Shown here: piece after piece, positions 2,791-43,504 of the stretch | How positions within the stretch are numbered: the first letter of the stretch is position 1 | Layout: every line of letters starts with the position of its first letter | Source of the DNA: Amphiscolops sp. MND2022 | Taxonomy: Eukaryota | DNA: 64,000 nucleotides | Direction: 5' to 3' | Assembly (NCBI GenBank): GCA_964187785.1 | Contig: OZ076414.1 | Location: 44,764,001-44,828,000 of the forward strand | Program-made: the position numbers and the translations under genes | The notes under the pieces: generated by a model | Seen by the model: only the letters and a program-made list of their open reading frames with translations | Told to the model about the DNA's origin: nothing | Database searches by the model: none

Positions 2791-4282
2791 TGTGATATTC
2801 CTCACCTAGGCTTTCTGCGTCAGACTCTTCGTCTGAGTGTATAGTTACATCTACATCGGATTCACTTCGAAACAAAGGTTTTGCAGGATGTTTCAAGTCT
2901 CTCATTTTAGAAACCTTGGGAGGAAAATTTTCATTTTCAGAATCTGGATTCTCGATATTAGATGCGCGAACTCCTATAGACCCATCTACCCTGGATCCCG
3001 ATTGCTGATTTTCTTGTATTTCATTTATGTCTGATCTTGGGTTTGTTGCTGTTGATGAGCTTTTGTTAGTTTTTATTTCCCTTAGAATTGCTTCTAATTT
3101 GTTATCCATTTCTTCTCGCATCTTTTCAATTCTGTCGTTGCTTTTTTGTTCCATTATTTGAGTCCAAACTTGTATCTCATTGCTAATTTGGCTGGGTTCG
3201 ACCAAGTTGTTCTCAGAGTTATTTTCGCCTAAATTACTTTGAATAACTGTATCATTATTAGTTAAAGTCACATTACCTGATATTGGTGTCTCAGCCTGAG
3301 TTCTCTCTATTTCCCTCTCTGGGGATGGAGTTTCTAGCCTTCTAGATCGTCTACTTCTTTTGTTTCCCATCCTTTCTCAATTGAAAATGAATTGCAGTTA
3401 TTGGGGAAGAATTTGAATTGATCCTTTTATTTGGCAAAACCAAATTGGAAAGAGAAAATGATAGGAAAGATGAAAATTTACAGAAAAGGATTGTAGATTT
3501 TAAAGCGACTGCACTTGAGTAGAATTGGAGAAGTTGTGTATCACCAAGTTATCTTAGCTGTCTATAACAATCATGACATCTCTTTTTACAGGCATCACCC
3601 TTTGGGAAACGTATAAATAGAATTACATCACAATAACATCAGTCTATTTATAGTACAAAGGCCCTGGAAGAATGACAATCAGATACGAAATGATAAGGTC
3701 TAGGAAACCCTAGAAGAAAGTATGGAATTACTTAAGAATGGTATTTGCATGACTAATCAACATTAAGATTCACTACATCATCAATTTGGAGTGCAACACT
3801 GCTAAAAACGCATGTTGACTAGTATACATTATGCATCGAAAAGTATATTACCGCATATAAGCACTTATGCGGAAATGACATATTTTGACGTATAAACACT
3901 TTCACTCGAAACGTATGTTGACGCATGAACGTACTATCTTGAAATGTATGTTACCGCACAATGATCGAGACATATTATTTCCAAAAGAGATTGTGAATCA
4001 CATATTACATAAATCTCAACTTCATGACTCATCAACTTGATTAACGAACATGAAAAACTAAATCTCAATACAATCTAAGATGTATTAAGCCATCTAAAAG
4101 AACAAAATCAACAAAACTAACAACTTTACCCAAAATAACATATTTACATGACATCAATAAAACGGGTGAAAAACAAACATAACATGTCATAAAATCAGTT
4201 GTAAAACTTCAAGTTACTTCCAGTCCTCATTCACTTTTTCAGCGCTGCACTCCGGCTCCCATGCAGGTACTTGGCTGCAACA
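2791..4282 (-). repeat. Element 1 3' LTR (1492 bp)
   Basis: Colinear with 17166-18657; roughly 25-30 substitutions and no indels seen by eye (~98% identity). Starts TGTGAT and ends GCAACA on the plus strand. Confidence 0.97.
3807..3975. repeat. Degenerate ~33-bp array in the LTR (second copy at 18182-18350)
   Basis: Unit TCGAAACGTATGTTGACGCATGAACGTACTATC. The core TCGAAACGTATGTTGACG matches TCGATCCGTATGTTGACG of the 6.1-kb array at 16/18 positions. Confidence 0.7.
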
Positions 4283-5306
4283 GTCCCGCATTTTTAAAGG
4301 TGAATAGGGCTGCTTCAAATCCATCTATGAATGCACGGGAACGTACATTCCGATCACGTACTGTCTCGGCTTCATAGGCTGTTGCAAGAAGATATTCGCC
4401 TAATATTTCAAGGGCTATCTGATCATAAGTTTTACCGCACCAATCGCAGAAACCTGCAATATTAGGCATGACTGTTGGTGATAATCGGTAAACATTTCTT
4501 TCTTCAGCTGGTAGAAATAATATATTTGTACTGTGTGTCGCCTGTACGATGAAGGCTTGTTGTATAAATGGAGGCACTGGTGGGTCGTTGTGAACTGCCA
4601 CAAAGTTAGGTATGATTGATGGAATTTGTATCATCAGTGGTACTGGGTTTGTTAGTTGATTTGGGTTTGTGAGGTGTGAGTTAGCAGCTGCACCAGGAGG
4701 TCTGTTATGAAGATAATCGTTCACATTATTGTGATCAGCTGTTTGGACTTCTGAGATATTGTCTCCCAGGTCGGTAAAGTTACTGATGTCAGCACTAAAG
4801 CCCGGTGGGTAGTTAGGTCGAGGTCTTCGTGGTAATCCTCTGCCCCTGCCCCTTTCTCTCGGGGTAGGAAGAATCGCCGCTGATGGCCTGCCGTAGCTAT
4901 TTAGTGGGGGTTGTTGAGCCATTTCCTGGTCATCCGGAGATTCAGGTGATTCTTCAAATTCCGAACTCACGAATGAAGATGGTGTCATTGAATGATTGCT
5001 CTGGTGTTCATCAATCAGGTCAAGCAATTGTCTTTCTATTTGCGATCCGGCAGTATCTATTATTTCTGTGTCTAACGGCGACGCTGTTGACTGGGGGAAA
5101 AGAGTCATAGCGGCTGCCCCGGCAAATGCAGTCATTGCGTTTGATCCTGGAGCACCCACTCGGAATCTTTCCTCAATTGCATTCACATTCCCGGGTTCAA
5201 CAGTGAACTCTTCTCCACTCTCACTAGAGATATCTATTACAGAAGGCGATGATCCAAAGGTGTCCATCAGATCGTCCAGTCTGAATTGTAGTCTGTCCAT
5301 TCTCAC
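4239..5306 (-). CDS. Element 1 accessory ORF (355 aa, unknown function), terminating inside the 3' LTR
   Basis: Long open frame with an acidic, Pro/Asn-rich N-terminal half and an ordered-looking C-terminal segment (CDWCGKTYDQIALEILGEYLL...RAFIDGFEAALF). The last residues LQPSTCMGAGVQR* are encoded by LTR sequence (4282-4239). ORF 5415-5642 lies in the same frame upstream, separated by two stops. Confidence 0.7.
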   Translation of the reverse strand: MRMDRLQFRLDDLMDTFGSSPSVIDISSESGEEFTVEPGNVNAIEERFRVGAPGSNAMTAFAGAAAMTLFPQSTASPLDTEIIDTAGSQIERQLLDLIDEHQSNHSMTPSSFVSSEFEESPESPDDQEMAQQPPLNSYGRPSAAILPTPRERGRGRGLPRRPRPNYPPGFSADISNFTDLGDNISEVQTADHNNVNDYLHNRPPGAAANSHLTNPNQLTNPVPLMIQIPSIIPNFVAVHNDPPVPPFIQQAFIVQATHSTNILFLPAEERNVYRLSPTVMPNIAGFCDWCGKTYDQIALEILGEYLLATAYEAETVRDRNVRSRAFIDGFEAALFTFKNAGLLQPSTCMGAGVQR

Positions 5307-6061
5307 TTTAGTGTCGGGTTTGTGATGAAAGTAACTTATGTCTTGGATGATAGTTCTTTTGAGAATTATTCAGTGAAGTTTTATGTGAGCAACTGGTTTT
5401 GACTCGGCTATAGACTATATTGTGATTAGTTTATGATTTCCTGGTGAAAAATAAGGAAAACCCGCGGAAAAAATGAGTGTCATGTCAACAATATTCCGCG
5501 ATCCCCTTATAAGGGTTTCCTTTGCTATGAAGCAATGGGTTCCATCATCATCAAGGTGTAAACAAGTCCTTTTAAGGTGATTCTTCAGGGTTTTCCCGCT
5601 AACAGCACCTTCTTTATTCTCTTCACAGCATTTCGTTGTCATTTTAAATGATAAGTAAACAAATCTAATATAACTTCAAGAGAAATTCAACGAATGACTC
5701 AGAAACTTGTCAATGAATATTCTCAATCAATTTTACATTTAACTAAATTTCATGAGTAAAACCAATGGAAATACAAAATGGTATAAAAGGAACATTTATT
5801 AAAGTTTTCATCATTTTTAATGTGTTGTCCTCTTCGTAGTTTTGTTCAAACACAGTCCCGCATTTAAAAGGGTATTAGGGTCTGATCATGAAACGTATAT
5901 TTAAAACAGATGTGTTCCCTTTAAATGAAATGTGACGTCAAAAAGGTTTCATCAAAATCAGTTCAGTTCAATCATCCCATAGTGACGAAACTTTCGTGTA
6001 TTAACGCATGATAGTATGCCATAATACGTTGCTCGTGCTTTCAATATCATCTGTCAATACT

Positions 6062-6245
6062 GCATCTATCTCCTGCTGCATATGTAACTAGAAACGTAGG
6101 TTGCCGCATACTCGTACTCACTCGATCCGTATGTTGACGAGTATGCGTCTTCACTTGATCCGTATGTTGACGAGTATACGTTTTCACTTGATCCGCATGT
6201 TGCCGCATATCCGTCTTTGCTTGATACGCATATTACCGTATATTT
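6062..6245. repeat. Degenerate 33-bp tandem array upstream of the antisense gene
   Basis: Unit CTCGATCCGTATGTTGACGAGTATGCGTCTTCA, about 5 copies. Confidence 0.85.
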
Positions 6246-6711
6246 GTCATAACGCTGCATGTAATTCGTCGTGTATTTGCTTTCCGAAATCTCTCTCGCT
6301 TTCACTGCGTAATTACCATTGTTTGCGCATTTGTCACTCAGATTGTCTCACGTTAATTAATCATACCAAGCACTCTGGCAGTAGTGAATGGCATTTAATT
6401 GACCAATCAGCGATCAGTATAAACTATACCGATTTCCAAAACCAGATTTCATTTTGCTCTTTTGCCTTTAATTGTTACGCTACGCCTTTTGTTTTAATTG
6501 AAATCGTTGAAATTCTGTCCACTGTTAATTTTAAAGGTTGCTGTCTATTAGTTTCAGTCTTCATTGTTTAGTAATCTCTGTTTTTCCTTAATTCATTTCC
6601 TCTCAGCAAATTGAAGTGTACTTCTTGTGTTGTTACCATCATTAAAAATTGTTTTCCTCTCCTGTCGATCGACAATCAAATTATCCCTTCTTGCAATTGG
6701 ATTCATTTATT

Positions 6712-9700
6712 ATGGACTCTCCCAGTCGCCGGAAGACAAGGAAGGATCAGCCCTCTCGTCGGGAAAGTGCTTCTTGGTGCTACAAGAGCCCGTCGGGTAC
6801 TACTCCTGGTTAGTTCAACTCAATTTGTTTCAGATTTTCAATTTTGAAATAAGGTTCGGTGAATTTTGAATGATAATTAGTTGGCCAGACTAATATCAGA
6901 GTTGATCAGATTTTAATCTTGATCAGATTTGAGGAGTTTTTTGAACGCTTCCGTTCTTGGTTTCGAACGACTTCCGTTTTCATTTCCTGTTTTCGTATCC
7001 AAAAACTAGTGATTATCAAACGGGTTCCGTCCATTTGACCCATTTATTTTCTAAAACGGATCATTTGTTTTAGTTGAACTTGGATCGACCCAAACGTCTC
7101 CTGGTCGCTCACCGACGAAGATTTATCATCCTCTTCAAGTTGTTTCCCCTGACGATCAGCAACAGACTGACTGTCCAGATACACCAGATCTTGCTCAGTT
7201 ACAGATTGATGAGGCTAAAAGATCCCCTGTTATTGAAGTACGTGAAATTACTGCACAAGGGACAGAAGTCACCTTGCCTACATTGAATCAACCTCCTTTC
7301 TCTGCTAGTTGTTCGGTACGTCAGATCACCAATCTTGAAGCGGCTGATATGGATCTCACTCCTACTCTTTTTAACCAAGACGCTGTTACTGAGGAGATTG
7401 TCCCATCTTCTTCCCAGGTCCCCTCTCCTCAATTCACCCAGTTCCTAACTTATTCTCAGAACCGGACGCTAGATCCACCCTCGCCTCGAGTCGTAGGCTT
7501 AGATGCTCCCGACCAAGGGCGAATGTGTACCCCACTTAGTGAGAATCTAGAGAACCCCACCATTGATACTCATGCCAATACTGAGCCTTGTGGACTCAGT
7601 GTCACACGACAAGAAGTCATGTTATTATCCAACATGCTCGGTAGGATTCCCCGGAGTTTCCTAGCTGGTGGGGATGAACAAGCAACGTCTCTTCCTTTCA
7701 GCATCGTTGAGAGTCCCTCTAATTATGGCACAGCATTACCTTTAACCTCAAGCCAGGATGAAAGAAACTCACAATCATCACCTGGAAATGCCACGCAGGA
7801 TCCTCAGAACCCTGATCAGTCATCTTTGCGGAAAAGGCAACGACCGAGGTACTCTCTAAAAACTCACATGTTCCACAAACATCCGGTTTTAAAATTCTCT
7901 GCTACTGGACCAATTGATCCAGAGAAAACACCATACAAGTGGTGGTGCCGGGTTTGCCGGTCCGAGCTGTCTCTAATGAGCAGAGGAACGCTTGAATTGA
8001 TGGCACACTACCGCTGTGATAGTCATTACATCAAGAAACATCGAATGAGGATGGAAATCCCCGGAATGGCCCTATTTGACAAGAATGAACAAGAGTTACA
8101 GGGTATGGCTTTGATTGAAGCTAAGAAGGTTGCAAAAAACACTTATCCCATTGCTCCTCAATTGGATAGCTTACGACCTTTGGTGGGACAGCATTCTGTC
8201 CCTGATTTCGGATCATTAACCAGTCCAACTGAAGGAGTTTTGTCCCTAGTCAGCATTCTCGAGTATGGTCTGAAAAATGGTGGACATGTGGACAGTTTGA
8301 CAGGAATTTACGACGGAATCTCTCGTCTATCCAGGAACAATCAGCTGCCTGTTCAAAACTGGGATCAACACCGCATTTATGTAAGCCTCATGTTTAAGTT
8401 TTCAGTTCTGCATATTTCGTTTATAAGGGGTAATTGTTGTTCTGGTTGAAGTGGGGTGGAGATAATTTGCTGAGTTTTAACAAGTTTGGTTTTGAAATTT
8501 TTTCACACTAATCATTGTTTCTATCTGTTCACAGGGAGGCCTGATACACATGTTTCGAGAGCTTATTAACTATTGTGTGACAGCTTGTGCTTCCTCCGGG
8601 ATTTATTCACTATCTCTTGAAAAGACTCCTACCAAAGATCTCCTTATCGTTTCCTTTTGGAGCGGTAACGTCCTACACAGAGTTTGTCTTGGAACAGGAC
8701 CCCGCGGTCTATTAATCCCGAAGAAGATCCTTGGTTTAGTGGCATCGTTCATTACTCTTTTTGAGAGCTCCCCGAACTGTGTGTGTCTTGTCGGAATGGG
8801 GGACAAACTTAACCAATGCCTCACTTCAACCCAACCAGGAATCAAGCGTCCTAATCTGGCTCACTCGTTTGGTCCGAACGATTTCGAGAAATGTCTTGCC
8901 GGCCCCACAGTAAACATTATCGAGCGCCACGACTTCCGGTCTATACTGGATTTCCTCTTAATGAAGCTGCGGACAGCACTTGACCGAGACTGGCTACAGT
9001 CCCTCCCTCTTCTTCATAAGGTTTTCATCCTCTTCTATTTCATTGTAATTATACATTCATAGATAATAATTGTTTTGCTTTGTCTTTTAGTGCGTCTTGA
9101 GTCTCCAGTATTCTCTTAGCGAAGCATCAGGACTTATTGAGTGCCTCTCTTCCAACTGGGACAAGATACGTGATCATTTAGCCCAAGTCTCTAGGCTGCC
9201 GAAGTACCGCTTCCACATGCGAGAGGTTAATTTGAATACCATTTTTAGTAATATACAACTCATCTGCATCGTTTTCATTGTTTTGATTGTTGTTTTAGCC
9301 AAGCACCCTCGACGAATGCTTCAGGCTCGACACAGCATATCTGGCCAGATTGTTTATCATCCGGTGCGCCATTGACCACTGTTAGTATGTTGTTTTGCTG
9401 ATTGATTTCTTATTTCGTACTTTTACATCACTTGCGCGATTTTCTCAGTGCGCCCGAAAATTCCACCATATTTTGACTAATTTGGGTCAGAAATGATCGT
9501 TTTTCAATAATACCAATTTCAATCTACCGTGCACCCCAGCTCTGATCATTGGAGAATACTATTTGACTGTTTCCATTAGCCGTGTTCTTTATTTAAGCTA
9601 CGTGTAGCCTCCATGTCTTTTTATGCACGTAATCTCTCCTTTTCCGCATAGTGACGCATATGCAAGTTGTCTCGATCCGCATGACAACGTATATGCGTAT

Positions 9701-10989
9701 CACCTCGATCCGCACAATAACGCATATGCGGATTACCTCGATTCGCATAACAACGTATATGCGTTTTATCTCGAACTGCATTATAACGTATTATTTCTCT
9801 TTGTCTAATACTAATCTGTGTTTGACCATTACGTCATCGTTATTCAGAGTTGCAATAACGTTGTGTTTCAGATGATTCAGCCTTTTCTGCCATTGAGACA
9901 CAAGCTGGATATGGATTCAGACTGTTCAATCAATACACTGTGTTTCTATATAGTCAACTGCAGAATATCCTTCCCGATAGCTCTATTGGGGCTATAACCG
10001 ACTGGGATAGATACATATCACTTGATTTCACAGATTCTGCTTTGCCATTCAAGTCGCCTGATGAATTTATCCTGAACGAGGATTTCCACAAACTAGTGTT
10101 AGCTAGTAAGTTACCACGTCCCAGCAAGTTTGTGGAACAATCTATTTCCTTTTGCAAAGCCTTTTGCAAAGATTTACTGGACCATGAGCTGGTTCAATCT
10201 AACTTGGCACGAGGCATGGCTGCATTTGATTTAGCAGTGATGGTGGAGGGTCCGGAGACCAATTACGTCAGTGCTATTGAAAAATTGAGCACTCATTTCG
10301 TGTCAACTGGATGGTTATCCCCTAGCGAGAAAGTCAAGGTGGTGAGCCAGTACAGGGCTTTTGTCACTCTGTTGCGTGCCAGTCCTTTGCCCGAGGTCAA
10401 TGATTTAGTCCAATTTCTTGCTACACACTACGAAATGCAAAACAGGCCTGAGTTGTATCAGTTATTCCGTTACTCTTGTCTCTCTTTGCCGAGCAATGTC
10501 AGTTTGCCCACTTCGTTTGAAGTACCCATTGCCCAGTTGGAGTCTGGCAATGAAGTGTTGCGTTCTTGTGTTACAAGTTTACAATTGTCCTACCAGACAG
10601 TACCGAATGTTTCTAATTTGTACCGGGACCCACGTACCATCAATCGTCTGTTTCGACTCTTAGGGAGAGGACCTGAACTGCTTACGGACAAAAAGTTCTC
10701 AGTGTGGAATATCCTCAAAAGCAGTGGGCCCAAACGGAATACCCTTCAGGGGAAATTTGAGGCTGCATATCGCAAAGCAGTGCTCAAAGTGGACAAGCCA
10801 GTAGTGCCTTCTAACACTTCAACCCCTACTGTTAGTCGTTCCAATAGTGGTAGCAGATCTCCAGTTTCTGGTCCTTCTTTGGGACGGGCTATAGTTCCTG
10901 TGTCTCGATGTGCTAACGACAATGAAGAAGAAGGAGGAAGTGTTCCCAAAGGGGCGAAAGTTAAAACTTCTCAAGGGAAGCGAAGTTAA
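6712..10989 (+). CDS. Antisense six-exon gene (~1074 aa): BED-like C2H2 zinc finger plus hAT-transposase-like body
   Basis: Exons 6712-6808, 7074-8380, 8535-9020, 9091-9225, 9299-9380, 9872-10989 total 3225 nt = 1075 codons including the stop. All five introns are GT..AG and phase-compatible (1,0,0,0,1), with no internal stops. An alternative intron 5 (9385-9953) is also in frame. Zinc finger WWCRVC-x16-H-x5-H at 7940-8026. The product family call is motif-based inference. Confidence 0.85.
9640..9790. repeat. Degenerate 33-bp tandem array in intron 5
   Basis: Unit CTCGATCCGCATGACAACGTATATGCGTATCAC, about 4-5 copies, same orientation as the 6062-6245 array. Confidence 0.85.
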
Positions 10990-11168
10990 TTTAGACATCT
11001 TTGTTTTGCTACAAACTATTTATATATTATAGTTGTTTGTTGTTTTGTTGATTGATCAGTCCAGTGGCATTTTTATTATTTATCTGATGTCAGATTGGCA
11101 ATTTCGCATATTATAAAAGTACACTCAACGTGCGAGAGGAAAAGAAAAAAGATTGTTTGTTCTTGTTT

Positions 11169-14100
11169 TCAGTATCTGTATGAGTCAGAGTAGTTTGGGT
11201 TGGGATTAGGTCGTAAGTTGTATTTTTCACCACGGGTATTTATGGGATCTTCTTCCAATGGGGTGTTTTGGGAATTTTCTGGGGTTTTCTGAATATCATC
11301 ATCAGTTGAAATATTTGCATCTCTTTGAATTTTTTGCCATCTTTTTGTCATCTTTCTTATTTAGTTGTTGGGGATTTTCATCAGCATGATTTTCCTGGTT
11401 TTGGTCTGGTACAGTGATCTGTTCCACTGGGCTCCCCCCCACTATTTTTTGAAGATTCAGGGGAGGGAGGGCGGCTATTTTCATGTAGTTGAATTGGAAT
11501 ATAATCAGTTTCTTCAGTATTTTGCAGGGAATCTGAAGGACTATCATCAAACGGATTTGAACCAAAGTTCGTGTTCCATGATTGGGCATATAGATCATCA
11601 TTTGCTATAGGCATCTGGTCATCTTTTTGCCAATCGGCTTCACGAACAAAAACATCGGCTAATGGGGCTTGCGGGGTGAATTTCCGCAAACGGATCCTGT
11701 GTAGCAGTTGCGTTTTATTCGTGCCAAGTCTCCGTACAATGTAATTATTGTTAGGGAGCACTTTTTCGACTTTATATGGTCCACCCCATCTGAATTCTCG
11801 AAATGGTATTTTCGTTGCTTGTGTATCAGCTTTTGGATTGAAAATGTAGCAGTAATCTGTTGTTTCAAGCGGAGCTGCTTTTGCTTTTCGGTCATAGTAG
11901 GCCTTGTATTTAAGGTAAGATTGCTTGATGTTCTTTTTGGTTTGGTCTAGAAGAGTCTTCATGCGTTTTTGAATTTCTTCTGCTACATCAGCTTGCGGGT
12001 GGTATTTTGGGTTGGGGTTATATCCAAGTTTATAATCGAGTATATTGTGTGGTATTCTACCATGGAAGACTCGTGAAGGTTCACAGCCGAGTGATGCATA
12101 TTATGTTGTGTTGTGATTAAGGACTGCCAAAGGGAGATATTTATGCCAGTTATTCCTGAATTCGCCTGTTGCGGCTTTGAGGTGTGTTTTGACTGAAGCA
12201 TGAGTTCTCTCAAGGAGTCCTATTGTTTGAGCATGTTTCATCGTTGCGTGTTTGAGTTCAATTCCGAGCACTGCTGCAACTTCAGGCGTTATTTGTGCAT
12301 TGAATTGAGTTCCTAGGTCAGTGATTATTGTTGTTGTGAGGTATGTGTGCTTGCATAGAATGTCCATGATAACCCTGGATACTGCCGTTGCATTACTTTT
12401 TGTGACTTGATAAGCAAATAGATATCTAGAGAAGACATCTATTGCTGTGATAATGTGATCATAGCCTCCACTGGGTGGAAGGTTAGGTAAAATGTCCATC
12501 TGTAGAATGTCTTCTGGGCCAAGATCCCATTCTGGACAATTCAGGAATTCTGTCCTGAGGAGATCATTGTTGATACGTTTTGTTTGGATACAAATTTGGC
12601 AGTTACTGACCCATTTCTTGATGTATTTTGCCATACATGGGTAGTAATATTTCTGTCTGGCTTCTTGTATCATTTTCGTGATACCTGGGTGGTTTGAATT
12701 ATGGCCATGGAGAGCTTGAAGGAATTCATCTAGAAGTTGAATCGGAAGAAGTATTTGGTAATGAGATATTGTTCCAGTATCTGTGTAATATTTTCTGGTG
12801 AGTACCTCTTGTTTGATTTCTATTCTTGTTATATTTTGTAGGTAGTGATGGTATCTGTAGTCTGATGCTAATTGATTTTCGTCGAAGGGGTCACCTTCAA
12901 TTTTGGCTCGTAAATTCCTGAGGACTATGTCGTTATTCTGCTCCAGACGTATTCTTGCATTGTCTCTGAAGTATCCGGATGATACTGCAATTGACCCTGA
13001 TGTGGGTTTGTGAAATTGTTGTAGCTCAGAGACGGTATTTTCTGGTTCATTGTGGGTTTCCGTTTGGGCTTGATTTCGGACGTTTTGCTTTTCTTCCCAG
13101 AGTTGATTTTCGTCTATTTCATCATCTGGGAGGATGTAGATTTGTTCTTCTTCAACAATGCCTGTTGATTGGATATTGACTTCGATTGCTTTCGTGTGGA
13201 TGTCATTACGAATGGTCATCTCTAGTTTTTCAGTTGGGTCGGCTTCTGTTCTAGAAAGGAAGTCGGCAGCTGTATTCATCGATCCAGCGACATGGGCGAT
13301 TACAAAATTATACTGCAAGACGTAATCGCAGGCATTCCAAAGTGCTGGAGGGATCATTTCTGTTTGAAAAAAGCGGGTCACTGAACGGTTGTCTGTAAAC
13401 ACGATTACTGGGAAGGTGCTTCCCCACATGAGGTGTCCAAATTCAACCAATGCAAAGTATTTGGAAAGGAATTCTTTTGCATAAATTGACATTTTTGTTT
13501 GAGTTGGGTTGAAGGTTTTTGAACCAAATGCTATGGGTGCATATGTTTTACGTCTCGATTGGAGTTTTTGGTTCGGGTCGTCTTCAGTCATGATTGCAAA
13601 TCCAGCTGCGGTGAAACTTGCGTCGGACATGACTATGAGTTGTTTGTTCTTCAGTGGTTGTTTGAGCGCTAATTGACAGGAATTTTCCAGGAGTTTGTTA
13701 AGGTTCGCGAAGTCTTCTATTAAGTTTGTTGGTACGTAGAATTTGGATGTTTCTTTGAGAAGTTTGAAGAACGGGGAAAACCGTTCGGAAAGGCGTGGTA
13801 TATATATTTTCGGTAATAGTTCAGGAATCCGATATACCTTTGTAGCGCCTTTTTTGATTTGGGAAATCGGAGTTTTTAGAGGAAATCTTTCACTTTATCG
13901 GCTTGAGGAGCTACTCCTGCGGGTGTGATGGTGCGACCTAGAAAGTCGACTTGTTTAACTCCGAAATGGCATTTGGACATTGAGAGTTTCAGTCCTGCAT
14001 TTCGGATACATTCGAAGACGGTTTTGATGTTTGCACACAATTGTTTTGTATCGTTTGCTGCTATGCCGATGTCATCGACATATTGGGCACATTGGTCAGC

Positions 14101-16065
14101 TTTAATTGCTCTGTCCAGGTATTCTCTCATGAAGCTAGAAAATGCAGAGAGTGATCTGCTGAGTCCCTGGGCGAGGCGACGATAAGCAAATGTTCTGCTT
14201 GCAAAGTTGAAGGCAAGCATCTGGATGGATTGGTAATCTGCCATTTGTAGGCAGTGGTAAGCCTGGGAGCAGTTTAGTTTGCAGAAGAGTCTTTTCCCTG
14301 CCATGTGTTGGGCTGCATCAGATAAAGTGCTTACCGGGTGGTTATTGTTGGTGTAATCTTCCGTGATGAGATTATTGATTTTTCTGAGGTCTACTAATAG
14401 TCTAAGGCGCCCATTCGGTTTGCGTTGTGCAAAAATTGGGCTTGCGTACTTAGAAAATGGTAGGGTTGTAATGATACCATATTTGTGCAGAAGTGCGAGT
14501 TCTACAGTGATATCATCTTTGAGGTTGATAGGAGTTGGCAGACTTTGGCTATAAGCTGGTCTGTCATCGTTTGGTGTAATCTTGACTTTGAACTCACGAT
14601 TAATGCCTATATCGAAACGATGTCTGGCAAAAATATCGTGAAACTCAACGAGGATCTCTTCAATTTCTTGTCGTTCGTCAGGGCTGAGTGTTGTGTCGGA
14701 CCAGTCAAAATTTGAGAGGAATGTTTTCCTGGCTGACTCATTATCATGTGGGTTCAGTTTTTCGAGTTCCTTTAATTCGAGAAGTTCGTCGTATATTCTC
14801 TGTTGAATTGGGGTATAACTAGCTGGGTCACCTGGTTCTTCAGGGGTTGGGAACCAGTATGATTCTTGGTCAGTGTTTGGTTGTGGGACTTTTAGTAGTT
14901 CGTTTATGTTTACTTCTGTTGGTTCTTCATATTTTATCATGAAGTCTAGCAACGCTGGGTCCACTGGTTGGATGTGTTTGATTTGTTCTGGTGTAAGTAT
15001 CTTGAAATCCGCTAAATGGGTGTCAAGGGAAATTGTATATGGTAGGTCAGAAAAATTGATGATTTGATATCCGATAGAATTGTTATTTACAGTGCTAAGT
15101 GATGCTGTGATAAAAATGCTATCATGGTTTTCAAATTGTTGCGATGGTGTTACAATTCCTGTCGCATTATGGTCCATCAGATGGGGCATTTTGCTTGCTA
15201 TGGCAAGTGTTTCTCCTGGTTGTAGGGTGTAGGTATTTTCGGCAAATAATGGTGTTGCTTGACGTATTGCTGTTTGGGTGTCAGGTTTAAGTTGCATTGA
15301 CAGGTAGGGAAAAGTTAAGATGCCTTGGTTGACATCAAAGATTGCATTATTTCTGCGGAGGAAACACAATCCTATTAGCGGGTTTGGTAGATTTTTCATG
15401 ATGATGAAGTTTTCTTTTAAAATGAAATCTGCCACTTCGAATTCTAATAATACTGTACCAATGGGGACTTCTAATTGTCCATTTGCTACCATAATTTGGA
15501 AGTTAGGTGGGGGACCAGTTTCTTTGATTGCTTCATTTGCTAGCAACTTGATTTTATTGAGGTCCTGTTCGGAGATTGCACTTGTAAGGGCTCCGGTATC
15601 GATAAGACCATCAAGTGTAAGATTTTCGAAGTCCATTGGAATGTAGTACATGTGGCGTTTTCGTTTCAATGTCAAAGAAGTTGAGATTGGGAGGTATGAC
15701 AAGTTTCGTTCCTTGTCAAATTGTATATGTTCAGTGAGATCTTCATTTAAAAGAGGTTGTTTTTTATCATTGCAAGAAGTTTTTATCGTTACGTGGTGTT
15801 TTGTTGTGTGTTGGATTTCTGAGTTTGATTCTGTTTCAGGGTTGTTCGTTTGTTGGAGAAAATAGTTGTCTGGAGCATTGTGTAGGAGTTCATATAAGTC
15901 GTCGGGTTGAGTTTCTAGTGTTGATTGTGGCGAATTTTGTGTCGTTAATTGAGTTTCGCAAACTGCTGTTTTTGCAGGTTTTGGGCTTAGCTGATGCTGC
16001 CAGTCATCTGCTAAGTTTTGTTTTTGTGGTGAGTTTGTATAAAGGCGTGGCGATTCTAGTTTAAA
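11169..16065 (-). pseudogene. pol: Element 1 pol: protease, RT, RNase H, integrase (several stops and frameshifts)
   Basis: Protease LIDTGA; RT LRLLVDLRKIN and YVDD; RNase H DASFTAAG; integrase HGHNSNHPG...CQIC and DILPNLP...D core. Stops at 13876 and 12101; frameshifts near 13800, 11430 and 11345. The tail ends KYNLRPNPNPNYSDSYRY* at 11169. Confidence 0.95.
16059..16065 (-). promoter_or_regulatory. -1 ribosomal frameshift heptamer TTTAAAC (gag to pol)
   Basis: The minus strand reads GGA-T TTA AAC TAG: an X XXY YYZ heptamer immediately before the gag stop. The -1 frame (GFKLESPR...) is the open pol frame of ORF 13876-16272. Confidence 0.8.
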
Positions 16066-17147
16066 TCCTTCGACGAGGATTGTTGGTGTCGTTCCAGTTT
16101 TGGTCTGATGGGTTTTTTGGCTTGTTTGTATTCTTCTATGACTTTCTTTTGTGCCTCGGTTAGGGTCCATTTGGTGGACGGTTTTCCATATTGGCACCGA
16201 AGTAACAGTTTTCTTCATCATGTCCGGGGGTTTTGCAATTGTGACATTTTTCAGCATCCGGGTCTTAATCAAGTTTACGCCGTTTTGCTATTTTGGGGCA
16301 GTCCGTCATCATGTGGCCTGTCTCTTTACAGTAACGGCATTGATCATTCTTGAGGGTTTTATCTGGTACTGTTTTTGGGGTTTGTTTTTTATCTTTGTCA
16401 TTTTGTTTTTTGTTGGGTTTTTCAGTGTTTTCTGCTTTTTTGGTAACGGTCATTTGGGTTTTGACAAGGGGTTCGTCTGCCTCAAGACCGTTAAGTTCCA
16501 TCTCTCGTTCAAGATGTTTAACTATTTGATCATACGTTCCATTCTCAAGGTAGGCCTGATTAATGGATTTTTTAAGGTGGGGAGGCATTTTTGCGTAGAG
16601 TAGGTTCTCAATCATTTGGTGGGCGTTCTCCCCAAACGCTTTCTCCCCACAGCACTTTCTTGAAGTTCTTCTAAAAAATCCAAAAGTTTCTGGTTCTCTG
16701 GGTCAAATGAGAGTCTGTGAAATCTGTGTTTTGCAGAAGCGCTAGACTCCGGTTTTACATATTTCCTTCGGAAGACTTTTAGTATGTCTTCTAAGGTTGT
16801 TGTTGGTGTTCTTTGTATGTTTTTAAATGTTTTGAGTGCCAAACCCCCAAGATGGGCGTGAAAATGGTTAATTTTCATGTCCTCTGTTAGGTTTGGTTGC
16901 ATTCGAAGTGTTGTATGAAACAAATCTTCGAAGTATTCAAATTTTTTGTTCTCATTTTTTCCATTGAAGGTGAGTGTATTCTTGGGATGAAATAGCGATT
17001 GTGGGGAGTTTTTGTTTGCCAATTTTTCTATGGCAAGTGCGATCTGGTTAACTGGGTCAAGTGGTTTTGCTGTCAAGATTGACATGTGGTCTGCGTGGGA
17101 TCCAGTTGTGTCATTTAATTTCTGGGAACTTTGTCTATGGAGTTGTC

Positions 17148-17165
17148 GGTTGGCTCCTGTCACCA
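17148..17165 (-). promoter_or_regulatory. Element 1 primer-binding site
   Basis: TGGTGACAGGAGCCAACC abuts the LTR end ...TATCACA. TGG is the complement of tRNA CCA. The primer tRNA is not identified. Confidence 0.8.
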
Positions 17166-18657
17166 TGTGATAATCCTCACCTAGGCTTTCTGCGTCAGAC
17201 TCTTCGTCTGAGTGTATAGTTACATCTACATCGGATTCACTTCGAAACAAAGGTTTTGCAGGATGTTTCAGGTCTCTCATTTTAGAAACCTTGGGAGGAA
17301 AATCTTCATTTTCAGAATCTGGATTCTCGATATTAGATGCGCGAACTCCTATAGACCCATCTACCCTGGATCCCGATTGCTGATTTTCGTGTATTTCATT
17401 TATGTCTGATCTTGGGTTTGTTGCTGTTGATGAGCTTTTGTTAGTTTTTATTTCCCTTAGAATTGCTTCTAATTTGTTATCCATTTCTTCTCGCATCTTT
17501 TCAATTCTGTCGTTGCTTTTTTGTTCCATTATTTGAGTCCAAACTTGTATCTCATTGCTAATTTGGCTGGGTTCGACCAAGTTGTTCTCAGAGTTATTTT
17601 CGCCTAAATTACTTTGAATAACTGTATCATTATTAGTTAAAGTCATATTACCTGATATTGGTGTCTCAGCCTGAGTTCTCTCTATTTCTCTCTCTGGGGA
17701 TGGAGTTTCTAGCCTTCTAGATCGTCTACTTCTTTTGTTTCCCATCCTTTCTCAATTGAAAATGAATTGCAGTTATTGGGGAAGAATTTGAATTGATCCT
17801 TTTATTTGGCAAAACCAAATTGGAAAGAGAAAATGATAGGAAAGATGAAAATTTACAGAAAAGGATTGTAGAATTTAAAGCGACTGCACTTGAGTAGAAT
17901 TGGAGAAGTTGTGTATCACCAAGTTATCCTAACTGTCTATAACAATCATGACATCCCTTTTTACAGGCATCACCCTTTGGGAAACGTATAAATAGAATTA
18001 CATCACAATAACATCAGTCTTTTTTTAGTACAAAGGCCCTGGAGGAATGACAATCAGATACAAATTGATAAGGTCTAGGAAACCCTAGAAGAAAGTATGG
18101 AATTACTTAAGAATGGTATTTGCATGACTAATCAACATTAAGATTCACTACATCATCAATTTGGAGTGCAACACTGCTAAAAACGCATGATGACTAGTAT
18201 ACATTATGCATCGAAACGTATATTACCGCATATAAGCACTTATGCGGAAATGACATAATTTGACGTATAAACACTTTCACTCGAAACGTATGTTGACGCA
18301 TGAACGTACTATCTTGAAATGTATGTTACCGCACAATGATCGAGACATAATATTTCCAAAAGAGATTGTGAATCACATATTACATAAATCTCAACTTCAT
18401 GACTCATCAACTTGATTAACGAACATGAAAAACTGAATCTCAATACAATCTAAGATGTATTAGGCCATCTAAAAGAACAAAATCAACAAAACTAACACAT
18501 TTACCCAAAATAACAAGTTTACATGACATCAATAAAACGGGTGAAAAACAAACATAACATGTCATAAAATCAGTTGTAAAACTTCAAGTTACTTCCAGTC
18601 CTCATTCACCTTTTGAGCGCTGCACTCCGGCTCCCATGCAGGTACTTGGCTGCAACA
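17166..18657 (-). repeat. Element 1 5' LTR (1492 bp)
   Basis: Matches 2791-4282. Followed on the minus strand directly by TGGTGACAGGAGCC and preceded by the TSD GCAAC. Confidence 0.97.
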
Positions 18658-22174: not shown

Positions 22175-22559
22175 TAATGGTGTTGAGACCTATGACAAAA
22201 TAGCATCGAAAACAACAAAATCTTTTAATTTTTTGACAATTTCAAGATCAATTTGAATTAATTCTTTTAGAAATTGAATTTATCTCTTTACGAAAGCTCA
22301 CGGAAACAACAAATTTCCCATAGTCTAGGGGCTTCAACAGTTTAGTCCACGAAGTCTATCGATAGTTTGACACAAATTGAACGAAAATTGTGAAAACCGT
22401 AAATTTTTCGAATTTTTGTCTTTTTCGATGTCAATTCCATACAATTTTCATTTAAAAAATTGCGTTCAGCTCTTCACTAAGCATGCTGGACAACTAATTC
22501 ATTGGTTGTTGACCGTGTCCAATCTTTTAAATTCCAGAGTTTGTCATACATTTGTGAAA

Positions 22560-23520
22560 AAAATTGCAAAAAACTTTTAAGATTGAAAAAATATGGGTTT
22601 TTTGTCATTTTCGGTGCCTATTTGAGATAATTTTTGTTGAGAAAACTGCAATAAACTCTTCAGAAAGGCCGACTGACTAATATTGTTTCCTTGCTGACGT
22701 TTCTCAACATTCCAATCCACGAAGTCTGCCAAAAATCTGGCAAAAATTGCATAAAATCTTGGAAAACAGAACATTTTGAGTTTTTGTCAGTTTCGGTTTC
22801 AATTTGAGACATTTTTCATTTGAAACACAGCAATTATCTTTTCGGAAAAGTTTACTGGACAACCATTTCTTGCCATTTTGAAAGTTTTCAACATTCAAAT
22901 TCACAAAATCTGTCGAAAATTTGAAAAAAAAAAATGCATAAAAATTTAAAAATCGTTAGTTTTTTGTTTGTCCTTTTCGGTATCATTTTGAGATGTTTTT
23001 GGTTTAGAAACTGCAATAGTCTCTTCGGAAAAGTCTACTGGACTAATTCTCTTTCCCGGTTGTCTATTTTCAACATTCCACTCCACGAAGTCATTCGAAA
23101 ATTTGACAAAAATTGCATGAAAACTTTGAAATATGGAAAATTTTGGATTTTTGGTCATTTTCGGTGACAATTTCAGACCTTTTTCACTTAATAAACAGCA
23201 ATTATCTCTTCGGAAAAGGCCAATGAACCGAATTTGTGTCAATGTGAGCGTTTTCAATAATATTTTTACCACGAAGTCTATCGAAATATTTGACAAAAGT
23301 TGCATAAAAACTTTTTGTGTTTTTGTATTTTTGGTGTCAATTTGAAGAATTTTTCATTAGAAAAACAGCCATTATCTTTCAATAGAAGACTATTGAACAA
23401 CGGGTTGGTGCCTTGTTGAACGTTTTCAACATTGTAATTCACGAAATCTGTCGAAAAATTGCATTGAAACGAAAAAATAGGAAAATTTTGCAAATTTTCA
23501 CATTTTTGTGGTCATTTTTG
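22560..23520. repeat. Degenerate tandem array, ~183-bp unit, about 5 copies
   Basis: The motif TTTTGTCATTTTCGGTG...GAAAAACAGCAATTATCT...TTCAACATTC..ACGAAGTCT recurs near 22600, 22782, 22965, 23150 and 23325. Confidence 0.75.
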
Positions 23521-25079
23521 GGTCATTCTGGGGTCCTTGGAGTCAACTAAAAAAGTCCAGAATTCTCCACAGATAGATATCGCACGAAGCTAAATTTATG
23601 TGAGTTGAATTCTATGGGTAACACCCTTAAAGTTAAATATGAATTTGGTGCTTGGCAAATTTTGTAAAAAAAACTTGTTTGATTTAAATATTTTCATTTC
23701 CCAAATATGAAATATGGGCGGAAAATAACAAAACTCGACCATATGGGCACCTTGCATTGATCGAGCCCCAATCCGATGAGATTAGAGATATGCTCGATGC
23801 ACAGATATATAAAGCAATTAACTCTGCAAAAAAAGGAGAGGGTGATTCGAAAAGTACTACCACAATTGGCACGATAAAGAATATCACTTTTGAAAGTGGG
23901 GATAATAGATCCATGGGACTGGGACAAAAACTCTAAATGGTTAGTACGAAAAGAAGTACAGGTCTTGGTCTGATTAGAACGCAAGCTTCCTCCGTACTCA
24001 GAGACTTGGAGTTTTTGAGCCAAGGCAAAACCACGGCATTAGTTCAAGGAATGTCTTCTCACTGACTTCATGCTCCAACCACTACGAACAAAAGTACTAC
24101 GTGTGTCTTTGAATGACAAATTCCAACGTGTCAATGACTACCTTGCTCGATAACATCATGATATTGAAGGAAAAGTTCAAGCTTTAAATCGCAGTATGAC
24201 ATAATAACTCAGTAAAACCTAATACAGTTCATGTTTGTCTGCACATTTCACGTTAACAGTAAATGGAAAACAAGAGGAGCAGTAATTTTGCGAAATTTTA
24301 AAATCAGCAAACTTTTTTTTGGAATCAGACACCTCTGAGCCCCATTTGTTTGACAAAAAAGCAACGGAAAAGTTTAATCTTGATGAGATTTTACCGTATG
24401 CTTTCGCCAACAATTAGGCTCAGCCAGTACAGTGGCAGGAGATCGAAGGAGAACGTAATAGATATATAGAATCCGTCAGTTCGCATTTCCTTCAAAACAA
24501 CTTCTATAGTCTGCGATTTCTAACTAAAGTGTCAACTAAAATTGAATCGAAATAAGTGCTATTGAGGCTGTTACCGGGTACATTTGCAGGTTGTTTTCTT
24601 TTCGGAAAACTGGTCCAATGTGAAGACTTCGAATATTAGTTACTACTCACATGGAGTTCCATCATAACCTAACTTTAGAACTTCTCAAATTCGAGTATCT
24701 TCACTACGCTGACATCTTCTTTGAGAAAAAAATGATCATAATGAAATATCGCATGCGAAGAACTTAATCTTGTACAAACTAGTCACTTTCTGATTTGTAT
24801 ATTTTCGACAAGGGAGCCAAAGCTGTGCAAGGACAATGATTCTCGGAAAATAGCAAAAAAATTACACGTGTATTTCAACTGCTGATGAAGATGAAGATAA
24901 GGAATATGGTTTCCCCCTTCTTTTTCGTTTAGTGTTTTTCATCCACTCGCTAATCTCTGACTTGTTATTTTCCGCTCACATAAATGGGGAATGAAAATTA
25001 TGATCTGTGTTGCGTTTGTTTCCAAATTCTGCCAAAACTCCACTTTTATTTACTCCATTTAGTAGAACGATATATTAGT

Positions 25080-40222: not shown

Positions 40223-43200
40223 TCAAACCCCATTTCTTGACTCTTCACTGTCATTCGTGTTGTGACCGTCGAGTTCCGTTTGCTCGTAGTCAACTTCCTT
40301 ATCTTTTCGAGGTGAAGTGTCGCAGGACTTTATTTGTTGCTCTTGCCAAATCACATGGGCACGGGCTAGGATTTCTTCCATGCGGTGCAGTTCACGGTAG
40401 ATCGAAGTCTTTCCAACAGGCTTCAAAATCTCATTCATTTCAACCACAATTTCAGCTCTTCTTTTGAGAGTTCCTTCTTTGTTTCCTACATAGGTCTTGT
40501 AATCCTCTGCATTGCAAAGTGCATCTGGTTTCTTTTCGATTTCACCTTCGTTTTTCTCAATCATTTCATCACAGTTCTCGTTGGAGTTTTGAAGCTGTAG
40601 GAACTGCTTCAACTGTCTTTCAATATTTAGGCATCGCATAATTGTGATCATCTGACCAATGTTTTTACTTCGTCCTTCCAAGGACGGTAATTCATCACGA
40701 TACCTGGATAGCCTGTCGCTTTTATTATCTGTCCATTCTGGCTGATACTTGGATTTCAAGAGCGCTTTGTTCGCTGCGAAGAATTTCTCCAATCTGGTCA
40801 GTAGGTCTTGCCGGTTGGTTTTTGTTGCTCTTGCCAAATCACATGGGCACGGGCTAGGATTTCTTCCATGCGGTGCAGTTCACGGTAGATCGAAGTCTTT
40901 CCACCAGGCTTCAAAATCTCATTCATTTCAACCACAATTTCAGCTCTTCTTTTGAGAGTTCCTTTTTTGTTTTCTACAAAGGTCTTGTAATCCTCTGCAT
41001 TTCAAAGTGCATCTGGTTTCTTTTCGATTTCACCTTCGTTTTTCTCAATCATTTCTTCACAGTTCTCGTTGGAGTTTTGAAGCTGTAGGAACTGCTTCAA
41101 CTGTCTTTCAATATTTAGGCATCGCATAATTGTGATCATCTGACCAATGTTTTTACTTCGTCCTTCCAAGGACGGTAATTCATCACGATACCTGGATAGC
41201 CTGTCGCTTTTATTATCTGTCCATTCTGGCTGATACTTGGCTTTCAAGAGCGCTTTGTTCGCCGCGAAGAATTTCTCCAATCTGGTCAGTAGGTCTTGCC
41301 GGTTTGCCAGAAGATATGCAAGGTCCTCCTTTGTCCTGTTGTCTTTACGCAGCTCCGCATGTATTGTATCCACATTTGCCTCAAACATTTGAATTGCTTT
41401 CATGTTGCTCTCCCATTGTGGCTTGTCCATGGAGTTCTTCAAATGGTAGTCGATTCTTTTGTAATCAATTCTCTTTGGTTCAGCCATCTCTTCACTTTTC
41501 GACTGAATTTATTTCCCTAAGTCACAATAGCCCAATGCCCCAGAGACACAATAGCCCAATCTCCCAGAGACACAGTCGCCCATTCTCCTAGAGACACAGA
41601 TCAGAGACTCCAAGATCGAGACACTAGTTCTTCTTGGGCAATCTTCTCAGTTGTCCACCAACGAGACGTCTTCGTCCTCGTCTACTTCTTCTTGTCAGGG
41701 TCGGCGGACCAAATGTAACGGCTGCTTGCCTTTATCCTGCGCTGAGGCTTGACAAACTTTACGCCGCCCTGATCCGTTGCTTAGTACTGTGGACCGTTAC
41801 TATACAAATCGTGTTTTTCTTGTGATAAAGGACTGTATCTTGTGGCTGGTGTGTCCGGTGTGACCAGTGGAATCTCCTGCGATCCCTCTTTGCACTTGTT
41901 TGGATCCGATGTGATCCGTAACACACTTCCGTCACTGTATCTTCACTTGCTCCGGCTCTCCAACTTTGAGAGTAGCTACTTAGTCGTTTTAACTCTAACG
42001 AAACCTTGTTACTTTTCGACTTCATCTTCGTTTTTCTCAATCATTTCATCACAGTTCTCTTTGGAATTTTAAGCTGTAGGAACTCCTTCAACTGTCTTTC
42101 ACTATTTAGGCATCGCATAATTGTGATCATCTGACCAATGTTTTTACTTCGTCCTTCCAAGGACGGTAATTCATCACGATACCTGGATAGCCTGTCGCTT
42201 TTATTATCTGTCCATTCTGGCTGATACTTGGCTTTCAAGAGCGCTTTGTTCGCCGCGAAGAATTTCTCCAATCTGGTCAGTAGGTCTTGCCGGTTTGGCA
42301 GAAGATATGCAAGGTCCTCCTTTGTCCTGTTGTCTTTACGCAGCTCCGCATGTATTGTATCCACATTTGCCTCAAACATTTGAATTGCTTTCATGTTGCT
42401 CTCCCATTGTGGCTTGTCCATGGAGTTCTTCAAATGGTAGTCGATTCTTTTGTAATCAATTCTCTTTGGTTCAGCCATCTCTTCACTTTTTGACTGAATT
42501 TATTTCCCTAAGTCACAATAGCCCAATGCCCCAGAGACACAATAGCCCAATCTCCCAGAGACACAGTCGCCCATTCTCCCAGAGACACAGATCAGAGACT
42601 CCAAGATCGAGACACTAGTTCTTCTTGGGCAATCTTCTCAGTTGTCCACCAACGAGACGTCTTCGTCCTCGTCTACTTCTTCTTGTCAGGGTCGGTGGAC
42701 CAAATGTAACGGCTGCTTGCCTTTATCCTGCGCTGAGGCTTGACAAACTTTACGCCGCCCTGATCCGTTGCTTAGTACTGTGGACCGTTACTATACATAT
42801 CGTGTTTTTCTTGTGTTAAAGGACTGTATCTTGTGGCTGGTGTGTCCGATGTGACCAGTGGAATCTCCTGCGATCCCTCTTTGCACTTGTTTGGATCCGA
42901 TGTGATCCGTAACACACTTCCGTCACTGTATCTTCACTTGCTCCGGCTCTCCAACTTTGAGAGTAGCTACTTAGTCGTTTTAACTCTAGCGAAACCTGGT
43001 TACTTTTCGACTTCATCTTCGTTTTTCTCAATCATTTCATCACAGTTCTCTTTGGAATTTTGAATCTGTAGGAACTCCTTCAACTGTCTTTCACTATTTA
43101 GGCATCGCATAATTGTGATCATCTGACCAATGTTTTTACTTCGTCCTTCCAAGGACGATAATTCATCACGATACCTGGATAACCTGTCGCTTTTATTATC

Positions 43201-43470
43201 TGTCCATTCTGGCTGGTACTTGGCTTCCAAGAGCGCTTTGTTCGTCGCGAATCGTTTGTCCAATCTGGTCAGTAGTCTTTGTCGGTTTGGCAGAAGATAT
43301 GCAAGGTGCTCCTTTGTGCTGTTGTCTTTACGCAGCTCGGCATGTATTGTATCCACTTTTGCCTCAAACATTTGAATTGCTTTCATGTTGCTCTCCCATT
43401 GTGGCTTGCCCATAGAGCTCTTCAAATGGTAGTCATTTCTTTTGTAATCAGTTCTCTTTGGTTCAGCCAT
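40223..43470 (-). CDS. Four tandem copies of a helical, coiled-coil-like ORF (MAEPKRIDYKR...), probably the BEL gag N-terminus
   Basis: ORFs 43000-43470, 42041-42478, 41002-41487 and 40223-40837 share near-identical peptide (NRQDLLTRLEKFFAANKALL...SLEGRSKNIGQMITIMRCLN). Confidence 0.7.
41714..42003 (-). repeat. Internal partial BEL LTR (last 290 bp) followed by a PBS at 41694-41711
   Basis: Matches the left 290 bp of 43833-44766, followed by TGGTCCGCCGACCCTGAC. Confidence 0.9.
42705..42994 (-). repeat. Internal partial BEL LTR (last 290 bp) followed by a PBS at 42685-42702
   Basis: Same as 41714-42003, followed by TGGTCCACCGACCCTGAC. Confidence 0.9.
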
Positions 43471-43504
43471 CTCTTCACTTTGGTCTGAATTTAGTTCCCA
43501 AAGT

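Follow-up and report, generated by a model that had tools for sequence, protein, structure and literature searches.

Tandem motif arrays in a Ty3/Gypsy element as predicted targets of an antisense zinc-finger protein that the element itself encodes

Why does one retrotransposon carry the same short tandem motif in its LTRs, in front of an antisense gene and within an intron of that gene? The question arises in a 64,000-nucleotide stretch of Amphiscolops sp. MND2022, here called the window, which contains a 15.9-kb Ty3/Gypsy element with gag-pol on the minus strand and, as cargo, a predicted antisense six-exon zinc-finger gene. The Ty3/Gypsy assignment is based on paired LTRs with TG...CA termini and the TSD GCAAC (3' LTR, 2791..4282; 5' LTR, 17166..18657; both minus strand, 98.2% identical) and on gag followed by protease, RT, RNase H and integrase. 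This coding region (11381..17751, minus strand) is broken into five reading-frame pieces in the window copy, where gag starts inside the 5' LTR, and its Pfam order is Ty3_capsid (weak), zf-CCHC, gag-asp_proteas, RVT_1, RT_RNaseH, Integrase_H2C2 and rve. An extra sense ORF (4239..5369, minus strand; 376 codons stop to stop) extends into the 3' LTR and has no Pfam match; it is kept in two of the clades introduced below, A and C.

The preliminary description of this locus reported arrays with a 33-nt period, a common motif and one orientation at four sites, and the period, motif and orientation are all borne out. A scoring matrix trained on the array upstream of the antisense gene alone gives 14.7-28.3 bits to the LTR units and 16.4-27.8 bits to 4 of the 5 intron units, against a top score of 16.8 and a mean of maxima of 10.4 in 20 Markov-shuffled windows. 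For each of the four arrays, autocorrelation is highest at 33 (0.47, 0.77, 0.69 and 0.47), and every unit is on the plus strand. The independent sites number three, however, as the LTRs are 98.2% identical and share a TSD, making their two arrays one site copied. In the 3' LTR the array (3802..3970, presumed U3) has four good units, starting at 3802, 3835, 3905 and 3938, and a degenerate one near 3872, which leaves one 70-bp gap; its 5' copy (18177..18345; units from 18177, 18210, 18280 and 18313) lies upstream of the presumed gag-pol promoter. The array upstream of the antisense gene (6088..6252) and that in intron 5 (9638..9802) each have five units in 33-bp steps, with unit starts spanning 6088-6220 and 9638-9770, respectively. 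Two details required correction: the upstream array starts at 6088, not 6062, and the proposed TCGA core holds little information (positions 1-4, 0.25-0.75 bits across relatives). The arrays are CpG-rich, as had been stated, with an observed/expected ratio of 1.7-2.35 compared to 0.81 for the window.

The cargo gene (6712..10989, plus strand) is predicted from GT-AG sites and phases and has an open frame of 1074 codons in exons 6712-6808, 7074-8380, 8535-9020, 9091-9225, 9299-9380 and 9872-10989; under this six-exon model the placement of the third array in intron 5 is correct. It encodes a C2H2 zinc finger, C-x2-C-x16-H-x5-H (7940..8030, plus strand), that is BED- or matrin-like. The earlier BED label is weak: the window finger scores 10 bits against Pfam zf-BED (PF02892; E 0.95, cut-off 20.6), while 1 of 30 distant homologues exceeds the cut-off (P0354, 22 bits) and two others match weakly. 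By fold, the best match is the matrin-type finger of TUT4 (Z 5.0, rmsd 2.9, 64 aligned), and the RNA-binding matrin-type fingers of TUT4, TUT1 and U2 snRNP rank above BED fingers (Foldseek, ZBED1 E 2.8, Hermes E 1.7). The cargo body has no credible match among Pfam and PDB sequences, and fold searches with the last exon gave none (best Z 4.8). Profile searches against the 33 hAT ORFs of this genome did not establish homology of the cargo to hAT (best, a hAT BED finger, E 0.026), and hhalign against a shallow hAT profile gave a probability under 1%. At first look the genome has about 6,500 finger-exon candidates, and 82 parsed homologues comprise 40 loop variants, some probably from decayed copies. 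At one further probed locus with a distant RT (63%), the cargo was not detected.

Relatives grouped with the window copy as clade A retain the arrangement. Arrays are present in the LTR, upstream and intron 5 zones of all 18 diverged clade-A elements, whose finger exons are 62-68% identical, and are absent from 38 control stretches, in which no matrix found more than 4 matches on either strand. The conserved motif is a 10-bp direct-repeat doublet, MCGYATAnTG-MCGHATA (conserved positions CGYAT-A-n-TG-M-CG-H-ATA), repeated at 32/33 bp: of the 301 spacings between the 356 sites, 236 measure 32 or 33, and 355 sites are plus against 1 minus. Units per zone vary from 4 to 11. Across the three zones of the 18 elements the core reaches 2.3 bits per position, with adjoining spacers drifting freely. 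Low-information positions are equally alike between zones of one element and between elements (0.32 in both), and recent copying between zones is therefore not indicated; gene conversion as the source of the common motif was rejected on this ground. Core likeness is 0.83-0.84 throughout, values that are inflated because sites were selected by matrix. The LTR array is set 310-480 bp into the LTR, and a TATA-like word follows 135-152 nt from it in 16 of the 18; in the window, reading in the gag-pol direction, this box (3644..3653, minus strand) comes about 150 nt after the array and may serve as the promoter. The idea of a conserved TATA box for the antisense gene was discarded, because only 3 of the 18 elements have the word TATAA after their upstream array.

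Genome-wide, a 22-nt motif pattern has 731 matches, compared to 0 for its reversed control. Eleven of 18 motif-picked loci have cargo exons and seven do not; six of these seven were compared, and all six belong to one small LTR family whose gene-less members retain large arrays. No picked locus lay outside the element family (0/18; one chromosome, one pattern sampled), so the motif appears restricted to the family.

The pairing of finger and motif was followed into three sister clades by scanning 18 A, 8 B, 10 C and 10 D elements with matrices A-D on the plus strand. Matrix A had 355 matches in A, 12 in C and none in B or D; the 58 matches of matrix B were all in B and the 214 of matrix C all in C; matrix D had 111 in D and 2 in B. 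The 4x4 cross-scan is thus near-diagonal, and clades B, C and D lack the A array and each carry their own motif in matching places. Held-out halves were recovered at 5-27 matches per element, the sites having been located originally using the full matrix. In each of the four motifs, half-sites are paired and kept a fixed distance apart; B, C and D contain dyads, and A has a 10-bp period. Sites of B and D are dispersed rather than tandem, some in coding sequence (the gag part of the LTR, the pol 3' end and exon 2), and those of D face either way, the 111 plus and 32 minus sites falling at different positions. The finger loop is likewise clade-specific: LMSRG in A (20/20 copies), IKSKG in B (8/8), LKTKG in C (9/11) and IYGRG in D (8-9/11). 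In the Hermes BED finger, the loop and the start of the helix make all base contacts (PMC10368747), and aligning on the first His would place the variable loop in that contact region. Copies of these clades with LTR pairs 97-100% identical coexist in one genome, so the clades likely share host factors yet differ in motif.

Two further clades extend the comparison. A clade with the B-like loop IKTKG has the B motif upstream in 20/20 loci, as predicted beforehand, although this clade is probably close to B and its match is then not independent. In a fifth clade (IYSKG/IFSKG), the 3-kb flanks of 20 loci, a view that leaves out the LTRs, contained neither A nor C sites, just a scatter of weak matches to B or D, and no motif of its own on de novo search. 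Because the cargo is physically linked to U3 and the upstream region, motif and finger have a common descent, and the four clades amount to about three independent changes.

From these sequence comparisons, we propose that the arrays are conserved, clade-specific motifs that probably serve as binding sites of the element's own antisense finger protein, switching the LTR promoter and the protein's own gene. A finger dimer or oligomer would read the paired half-sites on one helix face, with the arrays supplying avidity; once bound, it would switch on the gag-pol promoter, some 150 bp distant, and exert feedback on the cargo gene. Large arrays would be retained by gene-less, non-autonomous derivatives because they allow the protein to be used in trans. 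Since such derivatives keep or even enlarge their arrays, activation seems somewhat likelier than repression within this model. The original suggestion that the arrays are cis-sites for the element's own finger protein thus gains partial, indirect support from the confinement of the motif to the family and the pairing of four loops with four motifs. It had been said that absence of the motif from gene-carrying relatives, or its presence in elements without the gene, would count against this suggestion. Both situations occur, yet both fit a clade-specific cis/trans code: the relatives carry motifs of their own, and the carriers without the gene are non-autonomous elements derived from this very family. 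The VANC-like, anti-methylation part of the suggestion did not gain support: in 37 pairs of LTRs, CpG transitions show no significant excess (29/2558 vs 144/16504, odds ratio 1.3, p 0.22), nor do they differ significantly within and outside the motif (5/720 vs 29/2558, p 0.41), and a literature search for host methylation data found none. DNA demethylation is an unlikely route.

Repeats in LTRs are known to act as enhancers for host factors, and the arrays could do the same, each clade depending on a different factor or tissue and the finger differences reflecting linked descent. Linkage of U3 and cargo would explain their co-inheritance, gene-less derivatives do have arrays, and the words TGACGT and CCGCAT in motif A presumably resemble ATF/CREB and GCM sites. 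We nonetheless consider this unlikely, given that the motif changes jointly at three zones without recent copying between them, that four motifs all consist of paired half-sites at fixed spacing with a loop fixed per clade, and that none of the 18 loci picked by one pattern on one chromosome fell outside the family. The cargo might instead bind the cDNA or the integrated copy without affecting transcription, for assembly of the pre-integration complex, tethering or blocking re-insertion, much as hAT transposases act on subterminal repeats. Cooperative binding of such repeated motifs by Hermes BED fingers (PMC10368747) and the spread of B and D sites along the element, coding regions included, would suit this; the fixed distance of the LTR array from a TATA-like word (16/18) and the position of a second array before the cargo gene point to transcription, and we regard a purely non-transcriptional role as quite improbable.

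Another reading moves recognition to the genomic RNA, where the motifs would act in export, packaging or dimerisation and be read by a matrin-type RNA-binding finger, in a manner resembling Rev/RRE. The three clade-A arrays would all sit in that transcript in one sense (355 vs 1), the finger's best folds are those of TUT4, TUT1 and U2 snRNP, and the intron array folds more stably than shuffled sequence (z -3.5 and -2.1). However, folding of the LTR and upstream arrays is weak against a crude shuffle (z -0.2 to -1.7), an Rfam search gave no match, clade D sites face both ways, and the dyads of B, C and D are typical of double-stranded DNA sites, which makes an RNA target very doubtful. It is harder still to believe that the arrays have no specific reader and either arose as neutral slippage repeats or serve to position nucleosomes. 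Unit number does vary from 4 to 11, motif A has its 10-bp period, and Retand arrays, described as family-specific, are of unknown function (PMC11963269), but a core of up to 2.3 bits per position beside drifting spacers, in 18 elements and three zones, and the dispersal of B and D sites are not what such DNA would leave.

Beyond the predicted binding, it is tempting to speculate, if only tentatively, that a disarmed DNA-transposase finger became the retrotransposon's own transcription factor and radiated into private, clade-specific lock-and-key circuits. If so, these circuits would insulate co-resident clades from one another, tiny gene-less elements would parasitise the switch, and dozens of natural loop variants would provide a readable recognition code for BED-type fingers. 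The family may be large, judging by the finger-exon candidates and loop variants counted above. Four fingers and four predicted motifs give a predicted diagonal binding matrix, a sharp and cheap test.

Element-encoded, sequence-specific regulators with co-evolving arrays are established for plant DNA transposons, namely VANC and TnpA. Features of that type are found here: element-specific, dense, same-orientation, non-coding arrays and a motif that differs with the protein in four clades. For VANDAL elements of Arabidopsis, VANC is an anti-silencing protein with demonstrated motif binding and demethylation, and, as in our element, it is element-encoded and accompanied by a short motif in same-orientation tandem non-coding arrays, an intron of its own gene included, with different motifs in related families (PMC5735166). 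Unlike VANDAL, a plant DNA transposon, ours is an animal LTR retrotransposon with a C2H2 finger, predicted binding and no CpG-methylation signature, and Pfam scans named no VANC family. Spm TnpA and other transposase-derived regulators (bioRxiv 10.64898/2026.08.24.746577) are sequence-specific activators that have lost catalytic residues and act on dense cognate clusters with family-specific motifs, all as proposed here; theirs belong to plant DNA transposons, while our cargo is in an LTR element and has a putative transposase origin. The words LTR, Gypsy and BED are absent from the main text of that report. Hermes hAT transposase also resembles the cargo in that it has just one zinc finger, its short half-sites come in pairs, to which it binds cooperatively, and variable residues are on what would be the equivalent loop; it differs in that our sites lie near promoters inside an LTR element rather than at inverted-repeat ends and our finger falls below the Pfam BED cut-off (PMC10368747). 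Gypsy elements can carry antisense genes in the interval from pol to the 3' LTR, and the function of such genes is stated to be unknown (PMC7264820).

A search that covered few subscription journals and excluded Repbase found no published account of the arrays, of the finger-motif pairing or of any zinc-finger cargo that comes with cognate arrays in a Gypsy element of an animal. One comparison system has an ORF in the cargo's position and orientation, with predicted DNA binding, tandem arrays there and a proposed regulatory role. Its arrays are internal, and the part of its description available gives no link between ORF and arrays, whereas our cargo is spliced and its motif is common to the LTR and co-varies with the finger. 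Transactivators of complex retroviruses also act on LTR repeats, as HTLV Tax does on 21-bp repeats and as foamy virus Tas does. Like the genes for Tax and Tas, the cargo is an accessory gene located after pol and before the 3' LTR, with repeated U3 elements and a presumed internal second promoter region; its protein, however, is unrelated to theirs and zinc-finger based, and the gene is antisense and contains introns. If our model holds, retrotransposons would, like complex retroviruses, be capable of operating private circuits of transcription.

Four arrays with a 33-nt period in one orientation had been described in the window, and all four were found, on one strand and with period 33 (3802-3970, 6088-6252, 9638-9802 and 18177-18345). 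The two LTR arrays are a single site copied, so the "four sites" of the preliminary description become three independent ones: LTR, upstream of the antisense cargo gene, and cargo intron 5. With a matrix trained on the 6088 array only, LTR units score 14.7-28.3 bits, against a maximum of 16.8 in shuffled windows. The host is a Ty3/Gypsy element on the minus strand (2791-18657), identified by paired LTRs and pol domains. Its LTRs (2791-4282 and 17166-18657, minus) share 98.2% identity and have TG...CA ends, and the TSD is GCAAC. Protease, RT, RNase H and integrase are present in pol, split across several frames in this copy. The gag frame (16612-17751, minus) starts about 585 nt within the 5' LTR and crosses the LTR end and primer-binding site. 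The stretch between pol and the 3' LTR holds the predicted cargo gene (plus strand; six GT-AG exons, open frame of 1074 codons) and a conserved extra sense ORF (4239-5369, minus) that ends within the LTR, has no Pfam match and carries C-x2-C in its C-terminal part. The LTR array region has 40 scored matching places in the 1.07-Gb genome (89-100% identity), many paired with about 14.3 kb between partners.

The window contains other repeats. At 5852-5870 the polypurine tract and LTR edge recur as an internal near-copy (compare 4279-4296); besides the LTR-edge copy, 3/20 relatives from clade A, the clade of this element, have a word like it upstream of the cargo, so it is not a general feature there. 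A degenerate tandem repeat of 184/366-bp period occupies 22300-23530. Nested repeats at 40333-44766 (a 488-bp tandem pair, 98%, and ~990-bp repeats with 24-bp micro-arrays) probably represent repetitive coding sequence of the minus strand.

The finger exon gave 6463 first-look candidates in the genome. We hand-picked 20 clade-A elements among the 150 matches listed and set aside the two closest (87-90%), leaving 18 whose finger exon is 62-68% identical to that of the window's element. Scanned with a matrix built on the window's 14 units, they gave 290 sites, and 356 after iteration, with arrays in all three zones in 18/18 and unit spacing of 32 or 33 in 236/301. The conserved core of motif A reads MCGYATAnTG-MCGHATA, a direct repeat with a 10-bp step. 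Within clade A (L011-L049, L126), RT hardly varies (branches no longer than ~0.02), the finger exon diverges to ~0.25 and the finger loop is fixed.

Controls comprised ten loci chosen by RNase H score (20 stretches; RT matches of 21-28% in eight loci, no locus with a finger gene inside the element itself) and 20 stretches at fixed positions. After removal of L060 and L089, which contain elements of clades D and B, no arrays were found in the 38 left. A 22-nt pattern for one common motif subtype had 731 genome matches versus 0 for the reversed control. Among 18 motif-picked loci drawn from the first 100 matches listed, mostly outside the finger-exon list, 11 have cargo exons and seven lack them; the six of these seven that were compared all belong to one small non-autonomous LTR family. 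Its complete 3.9-kb member (L172:2271-6181) has 1.3-kb LTRs (99.3% identical, TSD CTATT), ten clade-A units per LTR and the primer-binding site of the window's element, with neither pol nor cargo; the family recurs at L169, L170, L171, L177, L181 and L184 and as an insert in L136. Separately, L065/L066 represent an unrelated Gypsy family whose LTRs (>2.6 kb) hold a 29-bp tandem repeat, with no finger gene seen.

Sister clades carry motifs of their own. In clade B (eight among the 150 copies listed; RT 78-80%, finger 30-37%), motif A is absent and the motif is GGCC-N6-GGCC, with N6 spacing in 29/47 close GGCC pairs; sites occur in the LTR in 7/8 (one LTR out of view), and upstream and near the pol 3' end in 8/8 each. 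Clade C (10 of 107; finger 40-51%, RT 88-92% for copies scored in frame) shows an inverted pair, YATGCTGTTT...CYGCATA, with period 39/40 in intron 3, and more sites occur in its LTR and upstream zones. Sites in all three zones were seen in 9/10 elements; in the tenth, a duplication has moved the LTR out of view. In clade D (10 of 40), whose finger is 29-39% identical to that of A and ~50% to that of B, the motif is TGCCGTC-n4-TGAC-n4-GGTC. It occurs in both orientations, in the LTR in 8/10 and upstream, in an intron and at the pol end in 10/10 each. The 4x4 cross-scan is almost diagonal: plus-strand matches in A/B/C/D elements number 355/0/12/0 for matrix A, 0/58/0/0 for B, 0/0/214/0 for C and 0/2/0/111 for D. 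Tandem duplications of 2.6-3.1 kb over part of the cargo gene were seen in three clades (L017/L018, L098/L099, L129), 99% identical where aligned in the first two.

The finger (7940-8030, plus; C-x2-C-x16-H-x5-H) has a loop fixed within each clade: LMSRG in A, IKSKG in B, LKTKG in C and IYGRG in D. Aligned on the first histidine, these positions would correspond to those at which the Hermes BED finger is described as contacting bases (PMC10368747). The window finger scores 10 bits against Pfam zf-BED (cut-off 20.6), and one of 30 scanned representatives, from 618 found with an A+B profile, passes. The AlphaFold finger model (pLDDT 62.6) best matches matrin-type fingers (TUT4, Z 5.0); Foldseek gave E 2.8 for ZBED1 and 1.7 for Hermes. 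The last cargo exon is all-helical, and its fold search gave no match. For a candidate hAT transposase origin of the cargo, profile searches against 33 hAT ORFs of this genome gave a best match of E 0.026, to a hAT BED finger. The finger tree separates clades A, B and C into groups of their own; in the RT tree, B and C are well supported and A is poorly resolved at its base. Motif and finger therefore share descent. As predicted beforehand, a clade whose loop (IKTKG) resembles that of B carried motif B in 20/20 loci, ~2.09 kb upstream of the finger, a match that is not independent of descent. In twenty loci of the IYSKG/IFSKG clade, sites of motifs A and C were absent, B and D gave only weak, scattered matches, and the 3-kb flanks held no motif of the clade's own (LTRs out of view), which counts mildly against generality of the pairing.

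We favor over all rivals a putative self-encoded transcription switch formed by the arrays and the cargo finger, which these sequence patterns make probable. In 16/18 clade-A elements the LTR array is followed, after 135-152 nt in the gag-pol direction, by a TATA-like word; no such word is conserved behind the upstream array (3/18). That young clades within one genome have different motifs points to an element-encoded reader, and enhancers for host factors, ranked second, seem unlikely. The paired half-sites at fixed spacing, the period of about three helical turns, the dyads in B, C and D and the two-way D sites point to a reader acting on double-stranded DNA; RNA signals, ranked fourth, are quite improbable. 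Binding of the arrays by the cargo for a non-transcriptional purpose is ranked third, and we consider it improbable. Neutral repeats come last and are very improbable. Spacer positions are no more alike between zones of one element than between elements of clade A (0.32 vs 0.32), and core likeness is 0.83-0.84 throughout, values inflated by site selection.

The preliminary description had also proposed VANC-like anti-silencing. Demethylation of this kind is not supported, because CpG transitions across 37 LTR pairs show no significant excess (29/2558 vs 144/16504, p 0.22; in-motif 5/720, p 0.41) and the center of motif B is GC, not CG. The proposed interpretation gains partial support, and the reading of the arrays as the finger's putative cis-sites is now sharply testable.

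Our literature search, in the parts of the sources consulted, gave no published account of a finger with cognate arrays in an animal LTR element. The layout is paralleled by the antisense ORFs of Retand and Grande, described as having no known function (PMC11963269, PMC7264820), and by the VANC (PMC5735166) and TnpA (10.64898/2026.08.24.746577) systems, both of which belong to plant DNA transposons.
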